Positions 9,192 to 58,561 of a stretch of DNA of 64,000 nucleotides are shown here, piece after piece. Source of the stretch: an uncultured Gammaproteobacteria bacterium (lineage in GTDB: Bacteria; Patescibacteriota; Microgenomatia; Curtissbacterales; GWA2-41-24); the NCBI GenBank assembly GCA_964492425.1, contig CAZBKB010000005.1, positions 12,468-76,467 on the forward strand, read 5' to 3'. The notes under the pieces were generated by a model. The model was given only the letters and a program-made list of their open reading frames with translations, did not search any database and had not been told where the DNA came from. The translations under genes were made by a program, and so were the position numbers. The number at the start of each line of letters is the position of its first letter. Position 1 is the stretch's first letter.

Positions 9192-10633
9192 GTGCAAAAC
9201 TACTAATTTTAATAATATCAGCATCAATCCTATTAAGGCTTGTGGTAATTAATCAAAGCCTATGGCTCGATGAAGGGATAAGCGTAAGCGTAGCCAGCAA
9301 TTTAAGCTACAGTGCCATAATAACAGATTTTTCCCCAGGTGATTTTCACCCCCCATTGCATTATCTTATTCTTAAGCTTTTCATAGACATTCTTGGCCTG
9401 TCAGAATTATCAGCCAGGTTGCCTTCCATACTTTTTGGCTCATCTACTGTGCTGGTTGTATATTTATTGGCAAAAAAACTTTATGACACAAGGACTGCTT
9501 TAACAGCGGCGGCGCTCCTGGCAACATCTCCACTGCATATTTTCTACTCACAAGAGGCAAGGATGTATTCTCAGGCAACACTCTTCTCACTTACATCACT
9601 GTATTTTTTTGTTTCAATTCTTCAAAAGGACAAGTTTGCCAATTGGATTGGCTTCATAAGCTCCCTCGTGCTCGCGTTGTATACGGATTACATCCCAGGC
9701 TTCTTGCTCCCAGCGTACATGGCATATTTATTATTTTTTAGAAAAAAACTCAATAAAACCACGATTAAATCCTTCGTCCCCGCATTCATATTAATATTTG
9801 CCTCTTTGTTGCCCTGGGCAGGCATATTTTACAATCAGTTGAGCATTGGTCTTTCGCTTTCAACTACATCTCCACAGTGGTACGGCGTCATTGGATCTGC
9901 CACGCCCAAAGATTTAGGTTTGGTTTTTATTAAATTCATTATCGGACAGATTTCAGTTGATAATAACCTTACCTATTTGCTGCTTTTCCTGCCGATTGGC
10001 TTGTATGTCATCTTCTTAATCATCATTTCATTTTTACGTATGAGTGTAACCAGATCAACACTATGGTTTTATCTGCTTCTACCAGTGACCTTATCCTTTT
10101 CGGTTTCACTTTTTATACCAGCCTTTTCCTATTTTAGATTGCTATATGTTTTACCTGCTCTTTATGTCATATTGGCATCAGCCATCAATAATCTTCATTG
10201 GACAAAACCAACGATATTCATGCTGACGCTTATGCTCGCAGTCAACCTTTTTTCAACGACAATTTACCTTAGGAATACAAAATTTCAAAGAGAGGATTGG
10301 AGATCGGCAACATCCTATATCAAGGAAAATAAAACCGACAACTCACTTGTTCTTTTCGAATCCAACTATGTGATTAGTTCCTTCGATTACTACAATCGAA
10401 GCGAAGTGGAGGCGATAGGAGTTTTAGATAGTTTTAGCCCGAACCCGGACAAGGTGTCGGATAACGTTAAAACTGCTATCGCTGGAAAAAACAAATTATT
10501 CCTGTTCCAATACCTGTCACCGATTTCCGATCCGCAAGGTATCGTATTCCAATCCCTCATAGAGAATGGATTCAAAAACACAGGTACTAAAGATTTTAGA
10601 GGGGTTGGATTCGTTTATGAATTTACAAAATAA
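9188..10633 (+). CDS. GT-C fold membrane glycosyltransferase, ArnT/PMT_2-like
   Basis: SLWLDEGIS motif after TM1, which is characteristic of the PMT_2/ArnT first loop. Multiple TM helices and a C-terminal soluble domain. Confidence 0.6.
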   Translation: MSAKLLILIISASILLRLVVINQSLWLDEGISVSVASNLSYSAIITDFSPGDFHPPLHYLILKLFIDILGLSELSARLPSILFGSSTVLVVYLLAKKLYDTRTALTAAALLATSPLHIFYSQEARMYSQATLFSLTSLYFFVSILQKDKFANWIGFISSLVLALYTDYIPGFLLPAYMAYLLFFRKKLNKTTIKSFVPAFILIFASLLPWAGIFYNQLSIGLSLSTTSPQWYGVIGSATPKDLGLVFIKFIIGQISVDNNLTYLLLFLPIGLYVIFLIIISFLRMSVTRSTLWFYLLLPVTLSFSVSLFIPAFSYFRLLYVLPALYVILASAINNLHWTKPTIFMLTLMLAVNLFSTTIYLRNTKFQREDWRSATSYIKENKTDNSLVLFESNYVISSFDYYNRSEVEAIGVLDSFSPNPDKVSDNVKTAIAGKNKLFLFQYLSPISDPQGIVFQSLIENGFKNTGTKDFRGVGFVYEFTK

Positions 10634-11441
10634 AAATAAAATTTACGATCTTTTTAAAAAACATTTTTGGCGGCAACACCCTGAGTCTGCACTTCGATAT
10701 GCACCTGTCATATCCGAGATAAAAAAGGTAAAAATTCCAAATCCAAAGATATTGGAAATTGGATCAGGATCACTGGGCATGACGCCATACTTTAAACAAA
10801 AGATCGATGCGATAGATGTGGATTTTTCAGGACCACCATCGCCATATATAAACAAAATAAAAGGTCAAGCATGGAACCTTCCGTTCAAAAAAAACTCTTA
10901 CGATATAACAATTTCTGTTGACGTTCTGGAACATATTCCTCCGCCTTTACGTGAAAAATCTATTTATGAAATAATTAAAGTAACCCGTAAATTAGCATTA
11001 ATTGTTGTCCCCACATCAACAGCATCTGAAGAACAAGACAGGGAACTTCAAAGGCGCTGGAATAATGTCTTCAAAATTAAAAATCAGTTTTTAGATGAGC
11101 ATGTAAAATATGGCCTACCGCAATCAGAAAAAATCCTGGTTTATATAGATAGGAGCAAAAGAGCGCTGAAAAAAGAATTAAAAGTTAAATCTTATCCCAA
11201 TCTAAACCTTGTCGTAAGAAATATTCTTATGAAAACATGGATAACTAAAAATAAATATATTTATTATTTGTATTTAAAAGGTTTTCTTCTTCTTGTCCCC
11301 ATCCTTAAATTTATTAACTTTGGAAAGACTTACAGAAGAGTCTTTGTGATAGAATTCGCGAGTCCAGCCAGAACGCAATTTGAGCCGTATACGACTAGTA
11401 TTGAAAAGGCGAAAATTAAGTTCAAGTGGGGTCGGCAGTGA
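10617..11441 (+). CDS. Class I SAM-dependent methyltransferase
   Basis: ILEIGSGSLG glycine-rich SAM motif and ISVDVLEHIPPP (Methyltransf_11-like). The start was chosen at ATG 10617 (17-nt overlap with the upstream gene). An alternative ATG lies at 10566. Confidence 0.55.
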   Translation: MNLQNKNKIYDLFKKHFWRQHPESALRYAPVISEIKKVKIPNPKILEIGSGSLGMTPYFKQKIDAIDVDFSGPPSPYINKIKGQAWNLPFKKNSYDITISVDVLEHIPPPLREKSIYEIIKVTRKLALIVVPTSTASEEQDRELQRRWNNVFKIKNQFLDEHVKYGLPQSEKILVYIDRSKRALKKELKVKSYPNLNLVVRNILMKTWITKNKYIYYLYLKGFLLLVPILKFINFGKTYRRVFVIEFASPARTQFEPYTTSIEKAKIKFKWGRQ

Positions 11442-21244: not shown

Positions 21245-22140
21245 AATTATCGATTGTCATTGTCTCCTATAACGTTCAAGAGCTTTTAGATAAATGTTTA
21301 AAATCCATATATATCGCTTCTAAAAATATCGACCATGAAATTTACGTTGTAGATAACAATTCCCAAGATGGAACAAAAGAGCTGATTATAAATAAACATC
21401 CGCGAGTGCGGTTAATTGCAAATACTCACAATATTGGTTTTTCAAAAGCTAATAACCAGGCAATCAAGTTTGCAAAAGGGGAATATGTCCTTATCTTAAA
21501 TCCGGACACTGTGCTCATGCCCGACACTCTTGTCAAAATGCTCAAGTTTATGGATCAAAAGGATGCAAAAGTAGCCATAGCAACATGTAAGATAGAGCTA
21601 CCCAGTGGCTTGCTCGATCGTGATTGCAGACGCAGTTTCCCAACTCCCGCAAGAGCCCTTACACACTTCACAGGACTTTCTAAAATATTCAGGGGAACAA
21701 AAATATTTGATTCCTACTATATGGGTTATATCTCGATTAACCAAGAAACTGAGGTTGACGCTTGTGTTGGTGCTTTTATGTTTATTAGGCGCAAAATCTT
21801 AAAGGAAGTAGGCAACTTTGATGAAGACTATTTTTTCTATGGTGAAGATTTGGATCTTTGTTATCGTATACGTCAACATAATTACAAAATTTTCTATACT
21901 CCAATTACCAAAATTATTCACCACAAAGGTGCGTCATCCGGCATCAAAAAACACTCAGCCGAATTATCTAAAGCACCTGAAGAGTCTAAAAAGAGGGCAA
22001 TTGTTGAATCAACACATGCAATGGAACTTTTTTATAAAAAACATTACAAAGGTAAATACCCCCTCTTTATTACGTTTGCAGTGATAATAGCGATTGAGAT
22101 TGTTAAAAATATAAGGCTTTTCAGGCATAATTTTTTATGA
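21241..22140 (+). CDS. Glycosyltransferase family 2
   Basis: LSIVIVSYNVQELL...YVVDNNSQDGT and LNPDTVL (DxD-like) motifs. ATGA overlap with the upstream gene. Confidence 0.75.
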   Translation: MKLSIVIVSYNVQELLDKCLKSIYIASKNIDHEIYVVDNNSQDGTKELIINKHPRVRLIANTHNIGFSKANNQAIKFAKGEYVLILNPDTVLMPDTLVKMLKFMDQKDAKVAIATCKIELPSGLLDRDCRRSFPTPARALTHFTGLSKIFRGTKIFDSYYMGYISINQETEVDACVGAFMFIRRKILKEVGNFDEDYFFYGEDLDLCYRIRQHNYKIFYTPITKIIHHKGASSGIKKHSAELSKAPEESKKRAIVESTHAMELFYKKHYKGKYPLFITFAVIIAIEIVKNIRLFRHNFL

Positions 22141-23237
22141 AGATTGGAATAGATGCAAGATTTGTGGGGCCCCAAGGAACAGGGCTAGGTAAATACACCG
22201 AAAAGCTAATCGAAAATCTTGAAAAAATCGATACAAGAAATCAATTTTATATCTTCCTGCGCCAAAGCAACTGGTCATTTCTAAAGTTGACAGGGGGAAA
22301 CTTTACAAAAGTTTTAGCAGACGTCCCCTGGTACTCCCTGGAAGAACAGATAAAAATGGCAGGGATTTATAAATCAAAACATTTAGATCTTCTGCATGTC
22401 CCCCACTTCAATGTTCCTATCCTTTACAACCTGGTGTTTATAGTTACAATACATGATTTAATACATCATAAATTTTCGCAGGAATCAACAACAACCAAAA
22501 ATCCGTTTATTTTCAAAATAAAAAGGTTTGCCTACAAAAGGATAATCACCCATGCTGTGACAAAATCCAAAAAAATATTTGTTCCTTCAAATTATGTTAA
22601 AGAAGAAATCATCAATAACTTTAACCTCGACGCTAAAAAAATTGTTGTAACTTATGAAGCTGCAGAAGAAGAATACTCACAAGGAACAAAATCAAAAGCT
22701 TCAAAATCAAACCAGATAATTTATGTAGGCAATACCTATCCTCATAAAAACATAGCGAAACTTCTGGAAGCTCTAAACATTTTAAAATCAGAAATTAAAA
22801 ATTTAAAATTGATCATCGTCTGTCCCCGGGATGTCTTTACAAATAGGCTGGCAAAAGAAATTACAGATAAGGGTTTAACCCAAGAAGTTGAAATTCTTCC
22901 TTATCAAAATGTAGATCAGCTAGTTAGAATTTTTGCAAAATCCAAGGCTTATATTTTTCCATCTCTGGAAGAAGGTTTCGGTATACCAGGTCTAAACGCT
23001 ATGGCCGCAGGCCTGCCAGTTATTGCATCAAATATTCCAACCTTAAAAGAAATCTACGAAAATGCGGCTATGTACTTTAATCCAAACGACCCAAAAGACA
23101 TTGCCGAAAAAATAAACCAGGTCATCGGCAGTTCAGATATCAGAAAAAGTTTGATCTTTGAAGGTGGGAAACAGGTAAAAAAATATTCATGGCTAAAAAT
23201 GACCAAAGAAACCCTTGCGGTTTACCGCTCAGTCTAA
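22137..23237 (+). CDS. Glycosyltransferase family 4
   Basis: FPSLEEGFGIPGLNAMAAGLPVIASNIPTLKEIYENAAMYFNP. Confidence 0.8.
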   Translation: MKIGIDARFVGPQGTGLGKYTEKLIENLEKIDTRNQFYIFLRQSNWSFLKLTGGNFTKVLADVPWYSLEEQIKMAGIYKSKHLDLLHVPHFNVPILYNLVFIVTIHDLIHHKFSQESTTTKNPFIFKIKRFAYKRIITHAVTKSKKIFVPSNYVKEEIINNFNLDAKKIVVTYEAAEEEYSQGTKSKASKSNQIIYVGNTYPHKNIAKLLEALNILKSEIKNLKLIIVCPRDVFTNRLAKEITDKGLTQEVEILPYQNVDQLVRIFAKSKAYIFPSLEEGFGIPGLNAMAAGLPVIASNIPTLKEIYENAAMYFNPNDPKDIAEKINQVIGSSDIRKSLIFEGGKQVKKYSWLKMTKETLAVYRSV

Positions 23238-23295
23238 TTTAACAAACACAGCTTTTCAATAGAAGAATGTTAGGACGTATAATCCCAACCTCAAG

Positions 23296-23460
23296 AAGAC
23301 AGCCCTCACATATGATCCTTCGACTTCGTTCAGAGCGACTGATTTCAATCTATTAGGTTTTTACTTTAGGCTGTGGAGATAGGATAATCAACATACTACT
23401 CCGACCAAATTTTAATGTCAATAATCAAAAAGTTGCAGACTAATCTATAACTTGTATAAT
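23296..23460 (+). repeat. Diverged copy (R0) of the cassette-junction module, including an outward promoter
   Basis: gatccttcgacttcgttcagagcgactgatttcaatcta ... tttaggctgtggagataggataatcaacatactac ... ttttaatgtcaataatcaaaaagttgcag aligns segment by segment with the R1/R3 modules (gatgacccttcaatttcattcagggtt ... tttgggctatggagataaggtgtttccactatagcac ... ttttctgtcaataatctaaaagttgacac). Confidence 0.5.
23432..23460 (+). promoter_or_regulatory. Candidate sigma70-like promoter with extended -10 (TTGCAG-17-TGTTATAAT)
   Basis: ttgcag at 23432-23437, a 17-nt spacer, then tgt+tataat at 23452-23460. This lies 17 nt upstream of the small ORF at 23478. Confidence 0.4.
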
Positions 23461-23477
23461 CTTTCATTAGCCCCGAT

Positions 23478-23639
23478 ATGACAGAGAGACAACAGCAACT
23501 AGCACGAATTTCTGAAACAAGAACACTATCAACTACAGATAGATTATCGCTCGCCTATTTAGCAAGACAAAATTTTGAGGAGGCAATTGAGATTGCAGCT
23601 CAAACCAAGGGAGGACATTCAAACAATTCTTGCAAGTGA
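23478..23639 (+). CDS. Small hypothetical ORF (53 aa), possibly a frameshifted remnant
   Basis: ATG 23478 to TGA 23639. A +1 frame continues as ILASDDEIAKQAVAYFGRV*, suggesting a decayed gene. No homology recognised. Confidence 0.2.
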   Translation: MTERQQQLARISETRTLSTTDRLSLAYLARQNFEEAIEIAAQTKGGHSNNSCK

Positions 23640-23709
23640 CGACGAAATTGCAAAGCAAGCAGTGGCATATTTTGGCCGAGTGTGAAAACAAAACTATCGG
23701 TGTGCCTTT

Positions 23710-24132
23710 TTAATTTGTATCGAGTGGGTATTGGCTTAAGTGCTTAACAAAGGGAAGATTTACAGCCTTAACAAATTTAGAGTCTGCAGTAAAAAGATCA
23801 CAATTATTTTCTTGAGCTAAGATTGCATATGAAGCATCGTAAACTGTAACCTTATGCTCTTTGGCAAATTTTAAACATTTGGGGAAAAAATCTGGAGTGG
23901 GATTAAATATCTCTATCTTGAAATTCACGAAAAGATTCCAAGCTGCACTTATATCTTTGAGCGTTAATTCAGCTTTAGAAGAAAGAACATTTGCAAGTTC
24001 ATACAAAAGGATGTCGGGAGCGATAACTTTTTGTTCACCTGCTAAAAACTTGTCCAGTAGTATCAAAGATACATGTCTTGTATCTTCTTCCCTTAGCCAT
24101 TTATAAATAATTGAAGTATCGGCTACTACCAT
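23710..24132 (-). CDS. vapC: PIN-domain ribonuclease toxin VapC
   Basis: MVVADTSIIYKWL (conserved Asp5), internal acidic residues and C-terminal FTADSKF. 140 aa. It overlaps the upstream antitoxin gene by 7 nt. Confidence 0.75.
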   Translation of the reverse strand: MVVADTSIIYKWLREEDTRHVSLILLDKFLAGEQKVIAPDILLYELANVLSSKAELTLKDISAAWNLFVNFKIEIFNPTPDFFPKCLKFAKEHKVTVYDASYAILAQENNCDLFTADSKFVKAVNLPFVKHLSQYPLDTN

Positions 24133-24383
24133 TTTCCTTCATATCTCATCTCTCTTAATGATTGAACTATGTCAAAATCTTTTAGCTTTCTTTTCAATAC
24201 TCTTGCGACCTTACGACGATTTGCATGAATTTGATTAACTTGGGTTTGAGAGCGAGTTTTATCTTCGGTGCGTATTTTTTCCCTAACTACTGCAGATAAG
24301 CTTTGACGTTTTTTGGCAGCTTCAGCTTTCAGTCTCAAGTAATCCTCCTCAGAAATTCTTATATTAGTAGTAACATAATTCAT
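24126..24383 (-). CDS. vapB: Ribbon-helix-helix type antitoxin (VapB-like)
   Basis: 85 aa. N-terminal beta-strand TNIRISEEDYLRLKAEAAKK (RHH pattern). It lies directly upstream of the PIN gene and overlaps it. Confidence 0.55.
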   Translation of the reverse strand: MNYVTTNIRISEEDYLRLKAEAAKKRQSLSAVVREKIRTEDKTRSQTQVNQIHANRRKVARVLKRKLKDFDIVQSLREMRYEGKW

Positions 24384-24384
24384 A

Positions 24385-24417
24385 ATACAATTGTATCATT
24401 GTATTGATATTTGTCAA
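24385..24417 (-). promoter_or_regulatory. vapBC promoter with palindromic operator
   Basis: On the minus strand, TTGACA (plus 24412-24417) is followed by a 16-nt spacer and TACAAT (plus 24390-24395). A perfect 12-bp palindrome atacaattgtat (24385-24396) overlaps the -10 and abuts the vapB ATG at 24383, so the transcript would be leaderless. Confidence 0.45.
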
Positions 24418-24453
24418 TTCTTCAACTAACACATATAATCTCAGTAATCAATA

Positions 24454-24660
24454 ATGAAGACTACCCTAGTGCATGATGACCCTTCGATAGACTCAGGGCA
24501 GTTGCTCAATCTCGAAGGTCTTTTTATTCTGAGCGAAGCAAAAATCAGAGACGAAGTTCTCTATTTGGGCTATGGAGATAAGGTGTTTCCACTATAGCAC
24601 TTGCAACTTTTCTGTCAATGCTACAAATTGACATCAAACCTGATGATATGTAATATGTGA
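24454..24660 (+). repeat. Cassette-junction module R1: remnant of the GT 5' end plus a conserved 114-bp block plus promoter
   Basis: It begins atgaagactaccctagtgcatgatgac (M K T T L V H D D, matching MKIALVHDDF of the GT at 28348). Positions 24506-24619 are 114/114 identical to 27547-27660. Confidence 0.7.
24628..24656 (+). promoter_or_regulatory. Near-consensus sigma70-like promoter driving cassette gene 1 (TTGACA-17-TAATAT)
   Basis: ttgaca at 24628-24633, a 17-nt spacer, then taatat at 24651-24656. The ATG at 24665 is only 8 nt downstream of the -10, so the mRNA would be leaderless or have a very short leader. Confidence 0.5.
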
Positions 24661-24664
24661 AACG

Positions 24665-25507
24665 ATGGTTAGAGAAAGAGACTACAAGCCAATAGAAATT
24701 CCGCAAACTGAGCCTCTTGTTATTCTCAGAAACCAGAAATTTTTCCCATTTTCAAATCTTGAATTACCTGAGGAAACAATAGGACATTTTGATTTTGCAA
24801 GCCAGGAGTTTCAGCTTCAAGAAGAAGATGGCATCACTACGGGTAGATTTCTGTATCAAGATGTGATGAGCAATGGTAACACGGCAATGTGGAACTTCCC
24901 TTTTCTTGCCGAAAAGTATTACACCTTAGGCTCTACAGAAGACGATCTAAAGCAATATACTGAGACATATCCTGACTCACCGCATAGGAGAATAATGTTT
25001 AAAGTTGCATTTGACCTTCCGAGGCCTATGGATCCAGAAAGTGAGTTCCGTAAGACGACTAGAATCAGAGTTGAAAATGGACAAACTGGAAATGTGTTTT
25101 ACGCAGTAGAGGCAAGGGCACAAGGTGGATATGACCGAACAAGATCCCCAAAAGATGGGCACTACGCCATACTTTACGATAGCTTCTACTACAAAGGAGA
25201 ACAGTGGGATGATCGTTTGAATAAACATGCTCACTTAGATATTCCAGAAGAAAGATGGCCTGAGATACATCAGCAGGTAGCAGATTATGAAGAAGATAAC
25301 TCCAAGCCTTACCCACAAGAGCTTGCAGACGCACATCGAAGAGTAAGAGAAGAGGATGATAGACGCTCTTATTTAATGCCATTTCGCTTGTCTATCATCA
25401 CGAAACCAGAAGTGGCAAGAGGTATTGCACTAACCATTGAGCAGGTTCCTATGGGTTCTGTAGATCTAAGTGTCAACACACCAGACCAAGTGTTGCACGG
25501 GCACTAA
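24665..25507 (+). CDS. Hypothetical protein (280 aa), cassette gene 1, no recognisable domain
   Basis: Clean ORF with visibly higher G+C than the flanking genes. Acidic and aromatic-rich. Flanked by junction repeats R1 and R2. Confidence 0.5.
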   Translation: MVRERDYKPIEIPQTEPLVILRNQKFFPFSNLELPEETIGHFDFASQEFQLQEEDGITTGRFLYQDVMSNGNTAMWNFPFLAEKYYTLGSTEDDLKQYTETYPDSPHRRIMFKVAFDLPRPMDPESEFRKTTRIRVENGQTGNVFYAVEARAQGGYDRTRSPKDGHYAILYDSFYYKGEQWDDRLNKHAHLDIPEERWPEIHQQVADYEEDNSKPYPQELADAHRRVREEDDRRSYLMPFRLSIITKPEVARGIALTIEQVPMGSVDLSVNTPDQVLHGH

Positions 25508-25694
25508 TCAATTAACCTTAAAATCATCCTCAGCTAAAAAATTGTTAAAATCAGATAGTGAAAATTGCACTAGTACACGATGACTTCAATCTCGAAGGTT
25601 TTTTGTTTGGGGCGTGTTGATAAGACAATTCCATAGTACCACTTGCAAGTTTTAAGTCAAGAAATCAAAATGATGCAAGTTAAAATAGAAGTCT
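25508..25694 (+). repeat. Cassette-junction module R2 (3' repeat plus GT 5' remnant plus diverged 5' module)
   Basis: 25513-25589 matches 28303-28379 (native GT upstream plus first codons) at 75/77. It then carries caatctcgaaggtttttt... and a diverged ccatagtaccacttgcaagtttt. Confidence 0.65.
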
Positions 25695-26873
25695 ATGCCA
25701 GAAAGATTTGAAAGACGAGTCACAAGACCAGTTCAAGTAGGAGAGATAACTATTGGTGGGGATAACCCCATTGCTGTGCAATCAATGGTAACTAGGGAAA
25801 CTCAGGATATTCAAGGAGTAACGGAACAAATCAAACAACTCAACCTCGCAGGTGCTGAAATTGTTAGAGTAACGACACCTACAATTCAAGACGCAGAGTC
25901 GCTTGCTGAAATAAAAGTTGAACTTAAAAGACGATATAAAGATGTACCACTTGTTGCAGATGTTCATCATCAAGGCACAAACATTGCAGTAGAGGCTTCA
26001 AAACATGTTGAGAAAGTTCGCATAAACCCTGGGCTTTTTGTTTACCATAAGAGAACATCCCAGGAAGAATATACACACAATGAGATTGATGAACAAAGGA
26101 ATGAAATTGACTCTGCCTTATCTCCACTTATAAGTGCATGTAGAGAAAGAGGTGTTGCCCTGAGGGTTGGAGTAAATCATGGCAGCCTTGCAGAAAGACT
26201 TACTGTCATGTATGGCGACACACCAGAAGGAATGGTTCAGTCCGCAATGGAATATCTAAAAATATGCGAGGGCTATGGCTTCAAAGATGTAGTGGTTTCG
26301 TTAAAAGCTAGTAGAGCTCCCACCATGATTGCAGCCAATAGGCTAATGGTTGAGCGAATGGATGAGGAGAATATGAACTACCCCATCCATTTAGGTGTTA
26401 CAGAAGCTGGCAAAGACCAATACGCAAGGATTAAAAGCACTTACGGAATTGCAACTCTACTCTCAGAAGGTGTTGGGGATACTATTCGGGTTTCCTTAGC
26501 AGAAGACCCAGTTAAAGAGTTATCCGTTTGTTATGACATCCTTCAAGCAGGAGGCCTTAGGCGTACCAAATCTGAACCAATAGCTTGTCCAGGTTGTGGA
26601 AGAACTAAGTTTGACCTTGATACCGTCACTGATGACATATTTGGTGCAACTGAGCATTTAAAAGGTTTAAGTATTGCTGTGATGGGGTGCATTGTAAACG
26701 GGCCTGGGGAAATGGCAGATGCTGATTATGGCTATGTTGGTCTGGGTGGTGGCAAAATAGCTCTATACAGAGGAAAAGAAGTAATCAGGACTGTCCAGCA
26801 AGAAGAAGCAAGAGATTCTTTAATTGCACTTATAAAAGAAGATGGAAAATGGATAAACCCACCTTCTAATTAA
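25695..26873 (+). CDS. ispG: 4-hydroxy-3-methylbut-2-enyl diphosphate synthase IspG/GcpE
   Basis: Diagnostic IspG blocks: PIAVQSMV, AEIVRVT, VPLVADVHH, RINPG, VGVNHGSL, HLGVTEAG, LSEGVGDTIRVSL, and the [4Fe-4S] Cys ligands in ACPGCGR and GCIVNGPGE. Collinear with E. coli IspG. Confidence 0.85.
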   Translation: MPERFERRVTRPVQVGEITIGGDNPIAVQSMVTRETQDIQGVTEQIKQLNLAGAEIVRVTTPTIQDAESLAEIKVELKRRYKDVPLVADVHHQGTNIAVEASKHVEKVRINPGLFVYHKRTSQEEYTHNEIDEQRNEIDSALSPLISACRERGVALRVGVNHGSLAERLTVMYGDTPEGMVQSAMEYLKICEGYGFKDVVVSLKASRAPTMIAANRLMVERMDEENMNYPIHLGVTEAGKDQYARIKSTYGIATLLSEGVGDTIRVSLAEDPVKELSVCYDILQAGGLRRTKSEPIACPGCGRTKFDLDTVTDDIFGATEHLKGLSIAVMGCIVNGPGEMADADYGYVGLGGGKIALYRGKEVIRTVQQEEARDSLIALIKEDGKWINPPSN

Positions 26874-26905
26874 CCCTAAAATCTTCCTCAGCTAAAAATT
26901 GCGTG
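26871..26905 (+). repeat. Partial copy of the 3' junction repeat after ispG
   Basis: taaccctaaaatcttcctcagctaaaaattgcg matches the start of the 28303/25513 repeat (2 mismatches) and then diverges. Confidence 0.4.
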
Positions 26906-26918
26906 CTAAAATGCCTGA

Positions 26919-27239
26919 GTGGACACATCGTTTGTCAGAAGAAAAGTTGAAAGCGGAGAATATGACCTTTCAAGCCATGCTCACCGAGAAAGACAAGAAG
27001 AACAAATTACAGTAGCAGAAATAGAGCAGGCTCTCCTTACAGGTGATATAATTGAAAAGTATCCAAAAGACGAGAGAGGCGAAAGCTGTTTAGTTGCAGC
27101 AAAAACAGAAAATAAACCAATGCATATAGTGTGTGGAAAACGAGACAGCAGGTTATTAATAGTTACAGTCTACAGACCAAAACTGCCTACTTGGGAAAAT
27201 TATAAACAAAGAACAAAGGAGTTGAAAAGCCGTGTCTAA
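26919..27239 (+). CDS. DUF4258-like small protein (putative toxin-like partner)
   Basis: 106 aa. SSHAHRERQEEQITVAEIEQALLTGDIIEKYP...ESCLV.G...RPMHIVCG...IVTVYRP resembles the DUF4258 family. GTG start. It overlaps the downstream Zn-finger gene by 8 nt. Confidence 0.45.
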   Translation: MDTSFVRRKVESGEYDLSSHAHRERQEEQITVAEIEQALLTGDIIEKYPKDERGESCLVAAKTENKPMHIVCGKRDSRLLIVTVYRPKLPTWENYKQRTKELKSRV

Positions 27240-27471
27240 TTGTTACTTTTGCAAAGGAAAAACCGAAATTAGAAATGTGAACGTGGACTTCAGATGGAAG
27301 GATAAGCTTTTCGTCTTTAAAAGTGTTCCCGTAGAGGTTTGTATCCAATGCGGAGAAAAGTACTACAGTGCAGAAATTTCCAAAAAACTAGATGATTTTG
27401 TCAAAAAACAATCAGAAGCAAAGATCAGTCCACAAAATACCATCCAAGTCCCCGTTTTCAATTGGCAATAA
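27232..27471 (+). CDS. YgiT-type (MqsA N-terminal-like) zinc-finger protein
   Basis: 79 aa. CYFCKG ...(32)... CIQCGEKYY forms a four-Cys zinc ribbon, as in YgiT-type antitoxin-like proteins that commonly pair with DUF4258. Confidence 0.5.
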   Translation: MSNCYFCKGKTEIRNVNVDFRWKDKLFVFKSVPVEVCIQCGEKYYSAEISKKLDDFVKKQSEAKISPQNTIQVPVFNWQ

Positions 27472-27489
27472 ATCTGTTGCTATAATCTT

Positions 27490-27711
27490 CTCATGCGGAT
27501 TGCGTTAGTACACGATGACCCTTCAATTTCATTCAGGGTTATAAATTCAATCTCGAAGGTCTTTTTATTCTGAGCGAAGCAAAAATCAGAGACGAAGTTC
27601 TCTATTTGGGCTATGGAGATAAGGTGTTTCCACTATAGCACTTGCAACTTTTCTGTCAATAATCTAAAAGTTGACACGTAACTAATCCCAGGTATAGAAT
27701 CAGCCTGTTTT
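27490..27711 (+). repeat. Cassette-junction module R3 (GT 5' remnant plus conserved 114-bp block plus promoter)
   Basis: atgcggattgcgttagtacacgatgac (M R I A L V H D D). 27547-27660 is identical to 24506-24619. Confidence 0.7.
27671..27700 (+). promoter_or_regulatory. Sigma70-like promoter driving cassette gene 3 (TTGACA-18-TAGAAT)
   Basis: ttgaca at 27671-27676 and tagaat at 27695-27700. The ATG at 27712 follows with no Shine-Dalgarno sequence. Confidence 0.45.
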
Positions 27712-28305
27712 ATGACAGTAGAGCAACAGCACGAAATTAGAGGCTGGTTGGATGTTATTGCATCTATTCGACAAAAGAGAGCAGAGGCATCACGAGCTGC
27801 TTATTCCTTAAAAGATGTTAGCAGAAAAGATTACGATGGTTTAGATGTGGAGCGATTTGGAGATATTACCACAGGTTTATCAATGGTACTAAAACCAGAG
27901 GAAATAGATGAAGCCCCTCTTGAAATACAAATGGTCCTGAACGATTTAGGTTTAACCTCCGAAGACCAAATTCAAGCCCAGCTAATATTGAAACAATCAG
28001 ACGGCTCACGTGGTTATGATTTTGTACTTAAGCCTACTGAATTAGTAGGAGGGAGAATGGGAATACTTTTAGACAGCAATGGCAGTCACGCAGTTTTAGG
28101 TGGTCCAAGATCAAGGAGCTTTGATGGCATACATCAAACTGTTGAAACATATGAAGGTAAATCAGCAGAAATCTACGAGAACTATAGATTTGGTATGGGA
28201 GATGCTCAAAATCCAAACTTAGTTGAAATTCTATATTCGTGTGTTAAATGGTTCGCAACCTTAGCAGAAAATAGACGAAAGACTCCACCAGAACCTATTA
28301 GTTAA
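27712..28305 (+). CDS. Hypothetical protein (197 aa), cassette gene 3, no recognisable domain
   Basis: Clean ORF with higher G+C than the host genes. Flanked by R3 and the native junction copy. Confidence 0.45.
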   Translation: MTVEQQHEIRGWLDVIASIRQKRAEASRAAYSLKDVSRKDYDGLDVERFGDITTGLSMVLKPEEIDEAPLEIQMVLNDLGLTSEDQIQAQLILKQSDGSRGYDFVLKPTELVGGRMGILLDSNGSHAVLGGPRSRSFDGIHQTVETYEGKSAEIYENYRFGMGDAQNPNLVEILYSCVKWFATLAENRRKTPPEPIS

Positions 28306-28400
28306 CCCTAAAATCATCCTCAGCTAAAAAATTGTTAAAATCAGATAGTGAAAATTGCACTAGTACATGATGACTTCACTCAGGCTGGCGGGGCAGAAAG
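28303..28400 (+). repeat. Native target copy: upstream region plus first about 17 codons of the GT4 gene, shared by all junction modules
   Basis: taaccctaaaatcatcctcagctaaaaaattgttaaaatcagataGTGaaaattgcactagtacatgatgacttcactcaggctggcggggcag. Copies or remnants lie at 25513, 26871, 24454 and 27500. Confidence 0.6.
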
Positions 28401-29472
28401 TCTGTTTGCCACAATTGCTGCCCTTTATCCGAATGCGCCGATTTACACTTCCCTAGTCAATTGGCGCAAACTGCCCGCATCAATCGATAGAAACAGGATC
28501 CGACCCTCATTTATGCAAAAAATCCCATTTGCCGCAAGCTTTTTTAAACTCCTTTTGCCGCTTTACCCGCTAGCCTTTGAAAGTTTCGACTTTGACAACT
28601 ACGACCTTGTCATTTCTTCGACAACTCGTTTTGCCAAATCGATAATCACAAAACCCAAAACTTGTCATATTTCTTATTTAAATAGCACACCTAGATTTTT
28701 GTGGGAAGAGGACAAAAAAAATGTCTATTTGCCAAAAATTTTGCTGTTTCTCTTAAGCCCCTTTTTTCGTTGGTTAAAACGCTGGGACTTATCATCAGCC
28801 CAAAGAGTTGATTATTTTCTTGCCAATTCCCAAAACGTAAGTCAAAAAATCCTCAAAATATACAGACGAAAAAATAAAGTTATTTATCCTTTTGCCGACA
28901 CCACTTTCTTTACTCCCGATAGAATCCATAATTGGAAACTTAAAAGCAAGAATTATTACCTTATTGTTACCAGACTTGTTAAATGGAAAAAAATAGACAT
29001 CGCAATTGAGGCGGTGAATGATATAGGTGCAAATTTAATAATTATCGGTGACGGGCCTGACAAGGGGAGGCTGGAGGGAATAGCGGTCAGGGACCAGCGG
29101 TCAGGAACCAGAGATCAGGTTACTTTTATCGGCAAGATAACACGAGAGGAGCTAAAAAGCTGTTACCAGAACTGCAGGGCGCTTATTGTGACACAAGAAG
29201 AGGATTTTGGTATTGCAACTGTCGAGGCTCAAGCTTGCGGTACTCCGGTTATAGCTTATGGGAAAGGTGGCACAGTCGAGATCATCACAGACAAAAAAAC
29301 GGGTGTATTCTTTAGTTCTCAAACCATGTCTTCGCTAAAAGATGCAATTTCAACGTCTTCTAGGTTAAAATATGATAAGTTAGCTATAAGACACAATGCT
29401 CTTCGTTTCACAAAAACTAACTTTGAAAAAATATTTAAGGAAATCGTAAGACAATATGCCAAATCAGCCTGA
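28348..29472 (+). CDS. Glycosyltransferase family 4 (target gene of the cassette array)
   Basis: GTG start with no Shine-Dalgarno sequence. The N-terminus is MKIALVHDDFTQAGGAESL. GT4 C-terminal block VTQEEDFGIATVEAQACGTPVIAYGKGGTVEIITDKKTGVFF. Confidence 0.8.
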   Translation: MKIALVHDDFTQAGGAESLFATIAALYPNAPIYTSLVNWRKLPASIDRNRIRPSFMQKIPFAASFFKLLLPLYPLAFESFDFDNYDLVISSTTRFAKSIITKPKTCHISYLNSTPRFLWEEDKKNVYLPKILLFLLSPFFRWLKRWDLSSAQRVDYFLANSQNVSQKILKIYRRKNKVIYPFADTTFFTPDRIHNWKLKSKNYYLIVTRLVKWKKIDIAIEAVNDIGANLIIIGDGPDKGRLEGIAVRDQRSGTRDQVTFIGKITREELKSCYQNCRALIVTQEEDFGIATVEAQACGTPVIAYGKGGTVEIITDKKTGVFFSSQTMSSLKDAISTSSRLKYDKLAIRHNALRFTKTNFEKIFKEIVRQYAKSA

Positions 29473-57421: not shown

Positions 57422-58561
57422 ATTCCTCGCAAGAATCCTTCTCAGCCGCAAGTTGCTCCCCGAAAGGGAGCATGCATATTTCAGAAAAGGACTTCAAGTC
57501 TTTTATAACTGTAAAACAGAACTTGGCACCACAATCCGTGAGGCATTGTTTAAGTCGTCTCGGCATCATCAACAGGTGGTTTGCAGACAAAGACCTGAAC
57601 AAAGACAATGTCGAGAAGTTTTATATGGAGCTTAAAGCCAAAGGCTTAAAAAATAATTCTCTCAATACTTATCACACAACATTCAGTCAGATTAGAAATT
57701 ACTGCCTAGATAGAGGGCTTCCAGCCGATTTCTATAGCGGCTTTAAGGCATACAAGAAGACAAAACCGGACATACTTGTTTTTACCCCAGAAGAAATTGA
57801 AAAAATAATAAGCACAGAACTTACTTACGGAAAGTTTTACGGCAAAGATGTTTCTTTCTTAAACTTCAGGTACAGAACGCTCACTATGTTTCTTGCATAT
57901 ACAGGTTGCAGATATTCAGAAGCAGCAGACCTCCAGATAAAGCGGCTAGATTTGTCTGCTGGAAGGGCCATTTTTATAAATACTAAAACAAACGAAAATA
58001 GGCCTGCCTATATAACTGAACCGCTTAAATCAAATCTTATGCAACTAGTAGATGGTAGAACTCCAGATGAATTTGTTTTCAGAAACGCAGTCGAAAAGCA
58101 CATTCATGTCTCTGACTATAGTGCAGACCTGAAAAGGCGTGCTAGGACTGCTGGTGTTACCAAAAGAACATTTCCACATAACTTCAGGCACACTTATATA
58201 ACACTTATGCTCGAGGCGGAAGTGCCAATAACAGAAGTGGCATCACTTGTTGGTCACAAGGACATCCAAACCACATACGATACATATATGCATCTCGCGG
58301 ATAGGACTTTGCAGAAAGCTGCCATGAGGCACCCGCTAGTTAGGAGAAATGTAAACCCAGCAGAAATAGTAAAAACTGTCAAAGAAACCCTTGAAAGTCT
58401 TCACCTAGAGAACGACGCAAGGTTTACCTTCAGCCTTTCAGAAACATCGAACGGATTGCAGTTTTCTCTTCAAACAAAGAACGAATAGGGGACTGAATCA
58501 GTTATAATTCAATCCCCTTTCTCAGCTCGCAAGCTACTCCGCCTGAATTCCTCGCAAGAAT
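57422..58561 (+). mobile_element. Integrase module bounded by a perfect 15-bp direct repeat (attcctcgcaagaat)
   Basis: The direct repeat lies at 57422-57436 and 58547-58561. Adjacent imperfect repeats ccttctcagccgcaagttgctcc (57437-57459) and ctttctcagctcgcaagctactcc (58517-58540) are arranged in swapped order. The module lies immediately after ftsZ at the start of a defense island. Confidence 0.4.
57472..58488 (+). CDS. Tyrosine site-specific recombinase/integrase (phage integrase family)
   Basis: N-terminal SAM-like core-binding domain. The catalytic domain has R (TGCRYSE), HNFRHTYIT, VGHKDIQTTYDTYMH (H-x-x-R ... Y). Higher G+C than its surroundings. Confidence 0.8.
   Translation: MHISEKDFKSFITVKQNLAPQSVRHCLSRLGIINRWFADKDLNKDNVEKFYMELKAKGLKNNSLNTYHTTFSQIRNYCLDRGLPADFYSGFKAYKKTKPDILVFTPEEIEKIISTELTYGKFYGKDVSFLNFRYRTLTMFLAYTGCRYSEAADLQIKRLDLSAGRAIFINTKTNENRPAYITEPLKSNLMQLVDGRTPDEFVFRNAVEKHIHVSDYSADLKRRARTAGVTKRTFPHNFRHTYITLMLEAEVPITEVASLVGHKDIQTTYDTYMHLADRTLQKAAMRHPLVRRNVNPAEIVKTVKETLESLHLENDARFTFSLSETSNGLQFSLQTKNE

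Follow-up and report, generated by a model that had tools for sequence, protein, structure and literature searches.

Gene content of the locus

The window, i.e., the whole 64-kb stretch of DNA analysed, originates from Rifle aquifer groundwater metagenomes. A 5-kb array of small cassettes lies in it between two genes coding for GT4 glycosyltransferases (GT), at 22137-23237 and 28348-29472, and is surrounded by a long co-directional region of cell-envelope and division genes. A junction unit recurs six times between 23238 and 28380, and the 114-nt block with which this work is concerned is one of its modules. In the list below, J0 to J5 are the junctions as delimited in alignment A1, F stands for a displaced 5' fragment of the downstream GT4 gene, B for a copy of the block, P(-) for its predicted minus-strand promoter, and L numbers for related loci; the protein families come from a Pfam survey of the 49 window proteins, for which the top 25 families are listed. 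No tRNA or tmRNA that could serve as an integration target is found within the 64-kb window.

22137-23237, plus strand: upstream GT4 gene (Pfam), with conserved synteny in L006, L018, L027, and L062; the fixed left border of the hot spot
23238-23478: J0
23293-23344, plus strand: F0, decayed displaced GT4 5' fragment (..AAGACAGCCCTCACATATGAT) with the type b spacer CCTTCGACTTCGTTCAGAGCGACTGATT (alignment A1)
23345-23422, plus strand: B0, a diverged 78-nt block copy, with the predicted minus-strand promoter TTGACA-17-TAGTAT (23421-23393)
23478-24383: cargo of cassette 1, i.e., a 53-aa ORF (23478-23639, plus), a PIN toxin (23710-24132, minus), and an RHH antitoxin (24126-24383, minus) (Pfam)
24384-24664: J1
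24454-24505, plus strand: F1, displaced GT 5' fragment ATGAAGACTACCCTAGTGCATGATGAC (M K T T L V H D D) with a 25-nt type b spacer
24506-24619, plus strand: B1, 114-nt block copy 1, i.e., the 76-nt core with a 38-nt insertion at ca. 24526-24563
24591-24618, minus strand: P(-) of B1, TTGACA, a 16-nt spacer, and TGc-TATAGT; start predicted near 24584, directed leftwards
24628-25507, plus strand: cassette 2, an ORF of 280 aa with no assigned function (24665-25507) and its own promoter TTGACA-17-TAATAT (24628-24656)
25508-25694: J2
25512-25585, plus strand: R-module (TTAACCTTAAAATCATCCTC..) followed by F2, the latter with a TGtTAAAAT promoter and GTGAAAATTGCACTAGTACACGATGACT
25586-25661, plus strand: B2, the 76-nt short form, with P(-) TTGACT-16-TGg-TACTAT (25660-25633)
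25695-27471, plus strand: cargo of cassette 3, i.e., IspG/GcpE (25695-26873), a DUF4258 protein (26919-27239), and an MqsA-like zinc-finger protein (27232-27471)
26870-26898, plus strand: partial R-module within cassette 3
26874-26918: J3, partial
27472-27711: J4
27493-27546, plus strand: F4, displaced GT 5' fragment ATGCGGATTGCGTTAGTACACGATGAC (M R I A L V H D D) with a 27-nt type b spacer
27547-27660, plus strand: B4, 114-nt block copy 2, with P(-) at 27659-27632 and a start predicted near 27625
27671-28330, plus strand: cassette 4, an ORF of 197 aa with no assigned function (27712-28305) and the promoter TTGACA-18-TAGAAT (27671-27700)
28302-28330, plus strand: R-module of cassette 4
28306-28380: J5
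28348-29472, plus strand: intact target, a GT4 glycosyltransferase gene (Pfam), starting with GTGAAAATTGCACTAGTACATGATGAC followed by TTCACTCAGG (V K I A L V H D D F T Q A G G A E)

The conserved modules begin at the stop codons of the cargo genes, and each cassette has, as judged from its sequence, a consensus-like promoter 6-17 nt ahead of the start codon. The displaced fragments likewise come with promoter elements: F1 has its own TATAAT (24434-24439) and F4 the promoter TGcTATAAT (27478-27486). Two cassettes have close counterparts elsewhere, the vapBC part of cassette 1 with the region up to 24425 being 75-79% identical to L030, and the DUF4258/MqsA cassette (26868-27489) 86.7% identical to L016. 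F0 is laid out in the same way as the leftmost junction in both L027 and L010.

Cassettes 2 and 4, each of which comes after one of the identical blocks, have their right ends in common as well (109 nt at 85%), and no homology was found between their 280-aa and 197-aa ORFs; the identical copies thus belong to sibling cassettes sharing both ends and carrying unrelated cargo. The start of the intact GT gene with 72 nt upstream of it (28302-28374) resembles the right end of cassette 2 (25512-25584) at 85-98%, F2 itself being 98% identical to the intact gene start. In the window, the target gene is thus kept intact at one end by sequence supplied by the element.

The block, its variants and its predicted promoter

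The 114-nt sequence, beginning with TCAATCTCG at both 24506 and 27547, occurs in the window exactly twice and with 0 mismatches (24506-24619 and 27547-27660), while shuffled versions give 0 matches. It is non-coding, as the original prediction had it, with stop codons in all six reading frames, and its flanks do diverge: the 25-27 nt preceding the two copies are ca. 60% alike and the identity ends directly after GTCAAT. Gene conversion could also explain a perfect identity of 114 nt amid spacers that are ca. 60% identical. The segment ccactatagcacttgcaa, to which attention had been drawn, aligns with ccatagtaccacttgcaag at 25631-25649 and with caacatactac near 23390, these being the homologous positions of the diverged copies B2 (25586-25661) and B0 (23345-23422). 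A MITE or an insertion sequence was considered and rejected: the block ends are at most 58-74% complementary, there is no transposase, and the TCAAT found at both edges is too short.

The basic unit is a core of 76 nt, the 114-nt form consisting of this core and a 38-nt insertion after the T-run, which corrects the unit assumed originally. Long forms of 114-117 nt, with an insertion of 38-41 nt, are found twice in the window and in L009, L010, and L018. The insertion contains two small hairpins, the second of which retains its stem in L010 but has a different loop, and at a second insertion site another hairpin insertion is present in L026 and L069b. The three CGAAG motifs do exist, starting at block positions 8, 28, and 47 (spacing of 20 and 19 nt); however, they are not a defining feature, because two of them lie within the optional insertion; L018 has GTGAAG/GCGGAG instead of one motif, and in L010 another loop takes the place of one.

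The block is conserved well beyond one genome. A scan of metagenomes with its first 19 nt returned 32 loci, including about 16 true homologues; when one genome per species was scanned, only two true matches were obtained, both in Candidatus Curtissbacteria. Altogether the junction element is represented by 21 sequence variants, all from Candidatus Curtissbacteria-type contigs, and the window itself is assigned to this group through relatives that bear the name; homologues coming from the exact 19-mer scan are ascertained for that 19-mer, while loci reached through the integrase described below are not.

On sequence evidence, the block carries a strong, near-consensus extended -10 promoter predicted to face outwards. 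The minus strand of ccactatagcacttgcaacttttctgtcaat matches 11 of the 12 consensus positions and has the extended -10 TG, so that -35 and -10 hexamers with 16-18 nt spacing and conserved key positions, as in sigma-70-type promoters, are all present. Across the 21 variants, the -35 box TTGACA is found in 19, a -10 box TAnnnT in 19 (as seven different hexamers), and the extended TG in 16, while the spacer has 14 different sequences. Constant boxes around so variable a spacer are the pattern expected from selection on a promoter. In the 64 kb only six sites reach at least 11/12 of the consensus; five of them are located in this island, two being the block copies, and resampled sequence is expected to give 2.4 such sites, or 0.16 with the TG. 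The segment ccactatagcacttgcaa is in fact this predicted minus-strand promoter, and the GT fragment just upstream of the block was overlooked originally. A separate plus-strand promoter, that of the cassette gene, lies 7-19 nt past the block at a variable distance, and therefore the apparent palindrome TGTCAAT..ATTGACA represents two back-to-back -35 boxes.

A small structured RNA, a leader or a riboswitch-like element acting on the downstream cassette gene would suit a conserved non-coding sequence upstream of genes, and also the hairpin-bearing insertions, whose positions are fixed (that of 38 nt in the long form, and the other one of L026 and L069b). The analysis of structure and covariation speaks against such an RNA and leaves it highly unlikely: on neither strand is the minimum free energy better than that of shuffled sequences (z +0.55 and +1.74), RNAalifold gives 0 conserved pairs for both strands over 17-18 homologues, and Rfam gives no match to the block at the gathering threshold or at E<=1. 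Moreover, the block lies outside the mRNA of the cassette gene, because the plus-strand promoter is located downstream of it. An intrinsic terminator composed of the block start and the T-run is doubtful as well, since the block contains no called terminator-like site and its hairpins do not exceed those of shuffled sequences in stability; the T-run is present in the block, but a 7-bp stem is formed in type b junctions only. A hammerhead-like reading of CATGATGA... was made by eye and abandoned, as there is no GAAA past the stem and the module is optional.

Displaced gene starts and the integrase of related loci

In all 21 variants the block is preceded by a displaced GT 5' fragment comprising the first 27-60 nt of the downstream GT4 gene, with its own -10 element and start codon and encoding ...K(I/V)ALVHDD. 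In the window such fragments are found at J0, J1, J2, and J4, and the intact start at J5, as in an accretion array. The intact gene comprises the sequence of the fragments up to GATGACTTCA. The crossover region is located in it at ca. 28369-28378, the right end ...GTACAYGATGAC reaching 28374 and TTCACTCAGG beginning at 28375, and at J2 the breakpoint reads GTGAAAATTGCACTAGTACACGATGAC/TTCAATCTCGAAGG. Since a fragment of the GT gene start stands before every block, the window comprises a tandem array of cassettes inserted at the 5' end of that gene. The fragments vary mostly at synonymous third codon positions, with (I/V)AL(V/I)HDD retained, which indicates that they diverged as parts of working genes. 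In the leftmost fragments of L027 and L010 the ATG overlaps the stop codon of the upstream GT gene, like a native translationally coupled start. A type b spacer (CCTTCGAT.AACTCAGG..) of 25-33 nt, the first 7 nt of which are an inverted repeat of the TCGAAGG in the block, separates the fragment from the block at J0, J1, and J4 and in several relatives; in these three junctions it does not fit a single fixed crossover point.

A gene fragment immediately upstream of the block raises the question of whether the block is itself decayed coding sequence, the continuation of the GT gene or another pseudogene, and a faint likeness of GAAGGTTTTTTGTTTGG to GAAAGTTTGTTTGC can be seen by eye. Such an origin is hardly tenable. 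Aligned locally with five intact GT genes over 150 nt, the block scores no better than shuffled blocks do, stops occupy all six frames, the frame relative to the fragment varies among junction types, and the block is conserved more highly than the real GT gene. In intact homologues the block does not form part of a coding sequence.

The order of genes around the array is conserved in L006, L013, L027, L028, L030/L062, and others: the upstream GT gene, variable cassettes, the GT4 gene (..ALVHDDF.Q.GGAE..), and genes for an NTP-transferase, Bac_transf, DUF4012, and RecO. The cargo at this hot spot varies and comprises NUDIX, Fic/Doc, PyrF, toxin-antitoxin pairs, an aspartyl protease, and unknowns. 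The vapBC cassette adjoins the intact GT gene in L030, whereas block B1 severs this start from the gene in the window; this indicates insertion of later cassettes between the start and the body of the gene, the newest cassette lying next to the gene.

The block is 74-93% identical to its counterparts in other genomes (73-91% without the ascertained 19-mer), while the adjacent GT gene is 63-65% identical to its orthologues at the nucleotide level. The three block subtypes of the window are 70-77% identical to one another (B0 is 70-71% identical to B1 and B2), and their closest relatives are found in other genomes: the B2 block of J2 is 93% identical to that of L013, the core of J1 90% identical to that of L027, and the B0 block of J0 76% identical to that of L068. 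Block and cassette identities that exceed those of the GT gene, and that are closer between genomes than within the window, are sequence evidence pointing to horizontal spread. Both the block and the integrase described below are absent from two near-complete relatives (L056 and L058). Look-ups of exact proteins for strain variants showing gain or loss of cassettes returned only the same arrangement, and no circular form, empty site, or presence/absence polymorphism was seen in the assembled contigs. Neither the three viral-contig scans nor BLASTN against phage and plasmid collections gave any sign of a phage or plasmid origin.

In L060 and L065-67, which represent contexts of the GT orthologue, a gene coding for an Xer-like tyrosine recombinase of 337 aa (int1) is situated head-to-head with the GT start. 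The int1 family has 36 members, including a clade of 65-91% identity from Curtissbacteria. Three further loci picked solely for their long surrounding sequence (L068, with int1 at 10001-11017, L069, and L070) have the integrase in the same position, so it is head-to-head with the target gene in all five contexts read. In all three loci with enough far-side sequence (L068, L069, and L070), the island ends on its far side, at a distance of 6.6-9 kb, in a GT fragment with the block, and L069 has a second junction of fragment and block further out. In the orientation of the GT gene, the layout is fragment, block, cargo, leftward integrase, new gene start, and gene. The islands carry defence-like genes (a Gabija-like pair, SIR2, HicAB) and, near the block end, a second, diverged recombinase. 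A 53%-identical int1 homologue in Woykebacteria is not adjacent to a GT gene. In the 64-kb window tblastn finds no int1-family integrase, the only tyrosine recombinase being an Xer-like ORF (57472-58488) that is 28-30% identical.

The designation of the sites as cassette junctions is borne out, as every block adjoins a displaced piece of the 5' end of the target gene and in relatives bounds integrase-bearing islands. Of the suggestion that it is a recombinase-binding or arm-type site, the idea of a recombination site fits this context, but an arm site in the lambda sense is not supported, because int1 has only SAM-like and catalytic domains and no arm-binding domain. Short motifs shared by the block and the integrase-proximal arm (CACTT..GCAAC, TTTGGCCA) were noticed by eye and are inconsistent in strand and position, and no inverted-repeat core site is evident around the junction. 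In the integrated state, the 160 nt upstream of int1 contain no promoter above 8/12 in five loci.

Some features recall an integron, in which case the block would be an attC-type site that an integron integrase recombines in folded, single-stranded form: the cassettes are small, mostly single-gene and include toxin-antitoxin pairs, the modules start at the stop codons of the cargo, and in relatives a tyrosine recombinase is located at the array edge. An integron is nevertheless very improbable here. None of the four junctions has an imperfect-palindrome (attC) architecture, only short arms of 7-12 nt being present; the cassettes have promoters of their own instead of being promoterless; int1 lies between the cargo and the target gene and not upstream of the array; and each junction contains a fragment of the target gene, which integrons do not produce. 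The int1 protein scores below all curated Xer and integron cut-offs; with the integron integrase model TIGR02249 it reaches 75 bits and the Xer-like ORF of the window 56 bits, against a cut-off of 265 bits.

Probable site-specific accretion of cassettes, and known systems

The reading we favour, with a probability of roughly 0.6, is that the block is the element-derived half of the attL of small integrative cassettes or islands that insert site-specifically at the 5' end of the GT4 gene, and that this half includes an outward promoter. The target would be the first ca. 30 nt of the coding sequence of one GT4 glycosyltransferase gene in Candidatus Curtissbacteria. The right end of the incoming element would supply a replacement promoter and gene start, and the previous 5' end would be pushed leftwards, remaining fused to the block of the newcomer at ...GAYGAC(T)/TCAATCTCGAAGG. 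Several rounds of insertion, with the integrase lost afterwards, would then leave a tandem array, in a manner resembling the accretion of cis-mobilizable elements. The ca. 20 nt of the block nearest to the crossover probably constitute a recombinase half-site bound by the integrase, and the last ca. 35 nt would form, judging from sequence and conservation, the promoter firing outwards across the junction, away from the cargo. Once the element is excised as a circle, the promoter would come to lie ca. 140 nt upstream of the integrase gene, in the same direction and reading through the core, and the integrase may thus be switched on only after excision. A promoter dependent on circularisation is inferred from this co-directional geometry together with the lack of a good promoter belonging to int1 itself.

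A doubtful though conceivable alternative is that the block is a portable regulatory module made of back-to-back promoters and an insulating T-run, the cassettes being shuffled by homologous recombination, e.g., after DNA uptake, without a site-specific recombinase, much like the promoter-stem-loop repeats (PeSL) of T4-type phages. It would accommodate the strong minus-strand promoter inside the block with the plus-strand promoter 7-19 nt further on at variable spacing, the lack of an int1-family integrase in the window and in many arrays, and the gene conversion-like look of 114 perfectly identical nucleotides inside diverged flanks. It leaves unexplained, however, that every block joins a piece of one particular gene at one and the same nucleotide, and that a dedicated integrase family is found precisely at the start of this gene, the block marking the opposite end of its islands. 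Its terminator part is weak too, with no site called and with hairpins equal to those of shuffled sequences.

Site-specific insertion at the GT gene start has its closest parallel in the three-step accretion scheme of islands and CIMEs, e.g., of ICESt1-related elements (PMC5704250). As here, such accretion leaves a tandem array separated by repeats of the target gene end (PMC5704250). In contrast to CIMEs, the units described here are very small, of about 1-2 kb and often with one promoter-bearing gene. Genes for conjugation or mobilisation are not seen in them, insertion takes place at the 5' end of a protein-coding gene, the host is a CPR bacterium, and excision is a proposal in this case. 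The SXT element also integrates at the 5' end of a protein-coding gene, prfC (PMC2791158). Both systems have a tyrosine integrase directed at the 5' end of a conserved protein-coding gene of the chromosome, and in both similar attP and attB are recombined. SXT differs in being a conjugative element of ca. 100 kb with Xis and transfer genes and in forming no arrays of mini-cassettes, its likeness to the int1 system being one of arrangement. It is also said, in a report of Hochhut and Waldor from 1999, to supply a new start for its target gene. The genomic islands of Dehalococcoides at the tmRNA gene ssrA (PMC3146451) are similar as acquired islands in a lineage-specific hot spot at one single-copy gene of an uncultured-type groundwater bacterium; as described there, they differ in that the target is the end of an RNA gene.

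With integrons the array shares small cassettes with diverse or unknown cargo, toxin-antitoxin pairs, a tyrosine recombinase, and the position of the newest cassette next to the insertion point. It differs from them in the absence of attC-like palindromes, in the cassettes' own promoters, in an integrase that scores below the cut-off and is placed differently, and in the target-gene fragments within the junctions. Promoters acting across the joint of a circularised element are exemplified by the junction promoters of IS911 and IS30 and by the read-through of Tn916 into its transfer genes. The likeness lies in an outward promoter at one end that becomes productive only once the ends are joined, which for the block is suggested by geometry. 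The PeSL of T4-type phages, reportedly described by Arbiol et al. in 2010 as mobile regulatory cassettes, resemble the junctions as repeated intergenic modules with promoters, situated next to small ORFs with no known function within a hyperplastic region. They differ in consisting of phage early promoters with a stem-loop moved by homologous recombination, with neither a target-gene fragment nor a dedicated integrase.

On the favoured reading, what is new here is a variant of site-specific island accretion. The literature search returned no paper linking Curtissbacteria with integrases and nothing relevant on integron-like cassettes in CPR. As a tentative extension, Curtissbacteria, and perhaps other CPR, might possess their own gene-capture system distinct from integrons, in which an Xer-like integrase would act in trans on promoter-bearing cassettes of 1-2 kb, with the block on the left and the R-module and gene start on the right, inserted singly at the 5' end of an envelope GT gene. 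The promoter of the block would be a circularisation switch, and the system would move defence, toxin-antitoxin, and core metabolic genes (IspG, PyrF) among genomes of otherwise minimal content.

Little is known of how the tiny genomes of CPR bacteria gain and exchange genes, and the locus is a defined, recurrent integration hot spot with a junction sequence that can be recognised, a candidate for a dedicated integrase, and a regulatory design open to testing. In groundwater metagenomes, the GT 5' fragment joined to the block can serve as a practical marker by which such arrays are found and breaks in assemblies are explained. At this locus metabolic genes (IspG, PyrF) and defence genes travel as small self-expressed cassettes.

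Modules and insertions at the cassette junctions

Besides the block, the 114-nt repeat, the cassette array has a second conserved module, the R-module, composed of TTAACCCTAAAATCATCCTC and ~30 nt, with copies also in loci of relatives (L006, L009, L010, L013, L016 in two copies, L023, L025, L026, L027, and L069). In the window it is found at:

25512-25540, R-module
26870-26898, R-module
28302-28330, R-module

The stop codons of many unrelated cargo ORFs are the start of the R-module or overlap it, their TAA often being provided by the module itself, and it is present at the partial junction J3 too, between cargo genes and without the block. The R-module may be the right-hand boundary of the cassette.

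A type b spacer, CCTTCGAT.AACTCAGG.., separates the displaced glycosyltransferase gene fragment from the block:

23317-23344, type b spacer
24481-24505, type b spacer
27520-27546, type b spacer

It is found also in L010, L027, L016 (the middle junction), and L018 (a 91-nt version). Its first 7 nt form an inverted repeat of TCGAAGG of the block, and the spacers preceding the two identical 114-nt blocks are only ~60% alike. Small hairpin-bearing insertions occupy fixed points of the junction unit:

24526-24563 and 27567-27604, in the window
L026 and L069b, in block copies
L023 and L028, between the R-module and the gene fragment

Their hairpins are TCTGA..TCAGA around GCGAAGC, AGAGA-CGAAGT-TCTCT, CCTGCC..GGCAGG, and ATTCTGA..TCAGAAT. 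The insertions resemble members of one family of miniature palindromic elements.

Recombinases and transposases

Each integrase-bearing island codes, near its block end, for a second tyrosine recombinase of 302-317 aa, of 30-37% identity to the first one (int1, the hot-spot integrase) and 38-47% among themselves.

L068 17137-18090, second tyrosine recombinase
L069 16603-17511, second tyrosine recombinase
L070 13845-14795, second tyrosine recombinase
L060 5447-5575, 45-aa remnant of an int1-like gene
Window 57472-58488, Xer-like tyrosine recombinase, 338 aa

The Xer-like protein shares 28-30% identity with the hot-spot integrase, scores under every curated family cut-off, and is probably the housekeeping recombinase.

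Transposase genes or fragments lie near the arrays of relatives, and arrays are a frequent site of contig breaks (L001, L002, L055, L065).

L065 1-321, DDE-type transposase C-terminus, at the contig start
L015 856-1860, minus strand, IS30-like ORF
L070 3473-4141, Y1 transposase, within the conserved operon

Cargo and its expression

Variable cassette arrays carry core metabolic genes, each with a promoter; the host genomes are very small.

Window 25695-26873, IspG/GcpE
L062 8219-9088, OMP decarboxylase, PyrF

At this hot spot, the cargo of integrase-bearing islands includes defence-like genes, namely those for an AAA_15/AAA_21 ATPase with a UvrD-like helicase (Gabija-like), a SIR2_2 protein, and several HicA/HicB pairs.

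L060 5789-8963, defence-like cargo
L068 12023-13030 and 19105-20868, defence-like cargo
L069 18523-19007, defence-like cargo

In the window and many other loci, the cassette genes and the intact glycosyltransferase gene have a TATAAT/TAAAAT-like hexamer just 6-8 nt upstream of ATG or GTG.

Window 24651-24667, hexamer before start codon
Window 25679-25697, hexamer before start codon
Window 28335-28350, hexamer before start codon

No ribosome-binding site is visible ahead of these genes in the same loci, which, together with the hexamer spacing, suggests that this lineage commonly makes leaderless mRNAs.
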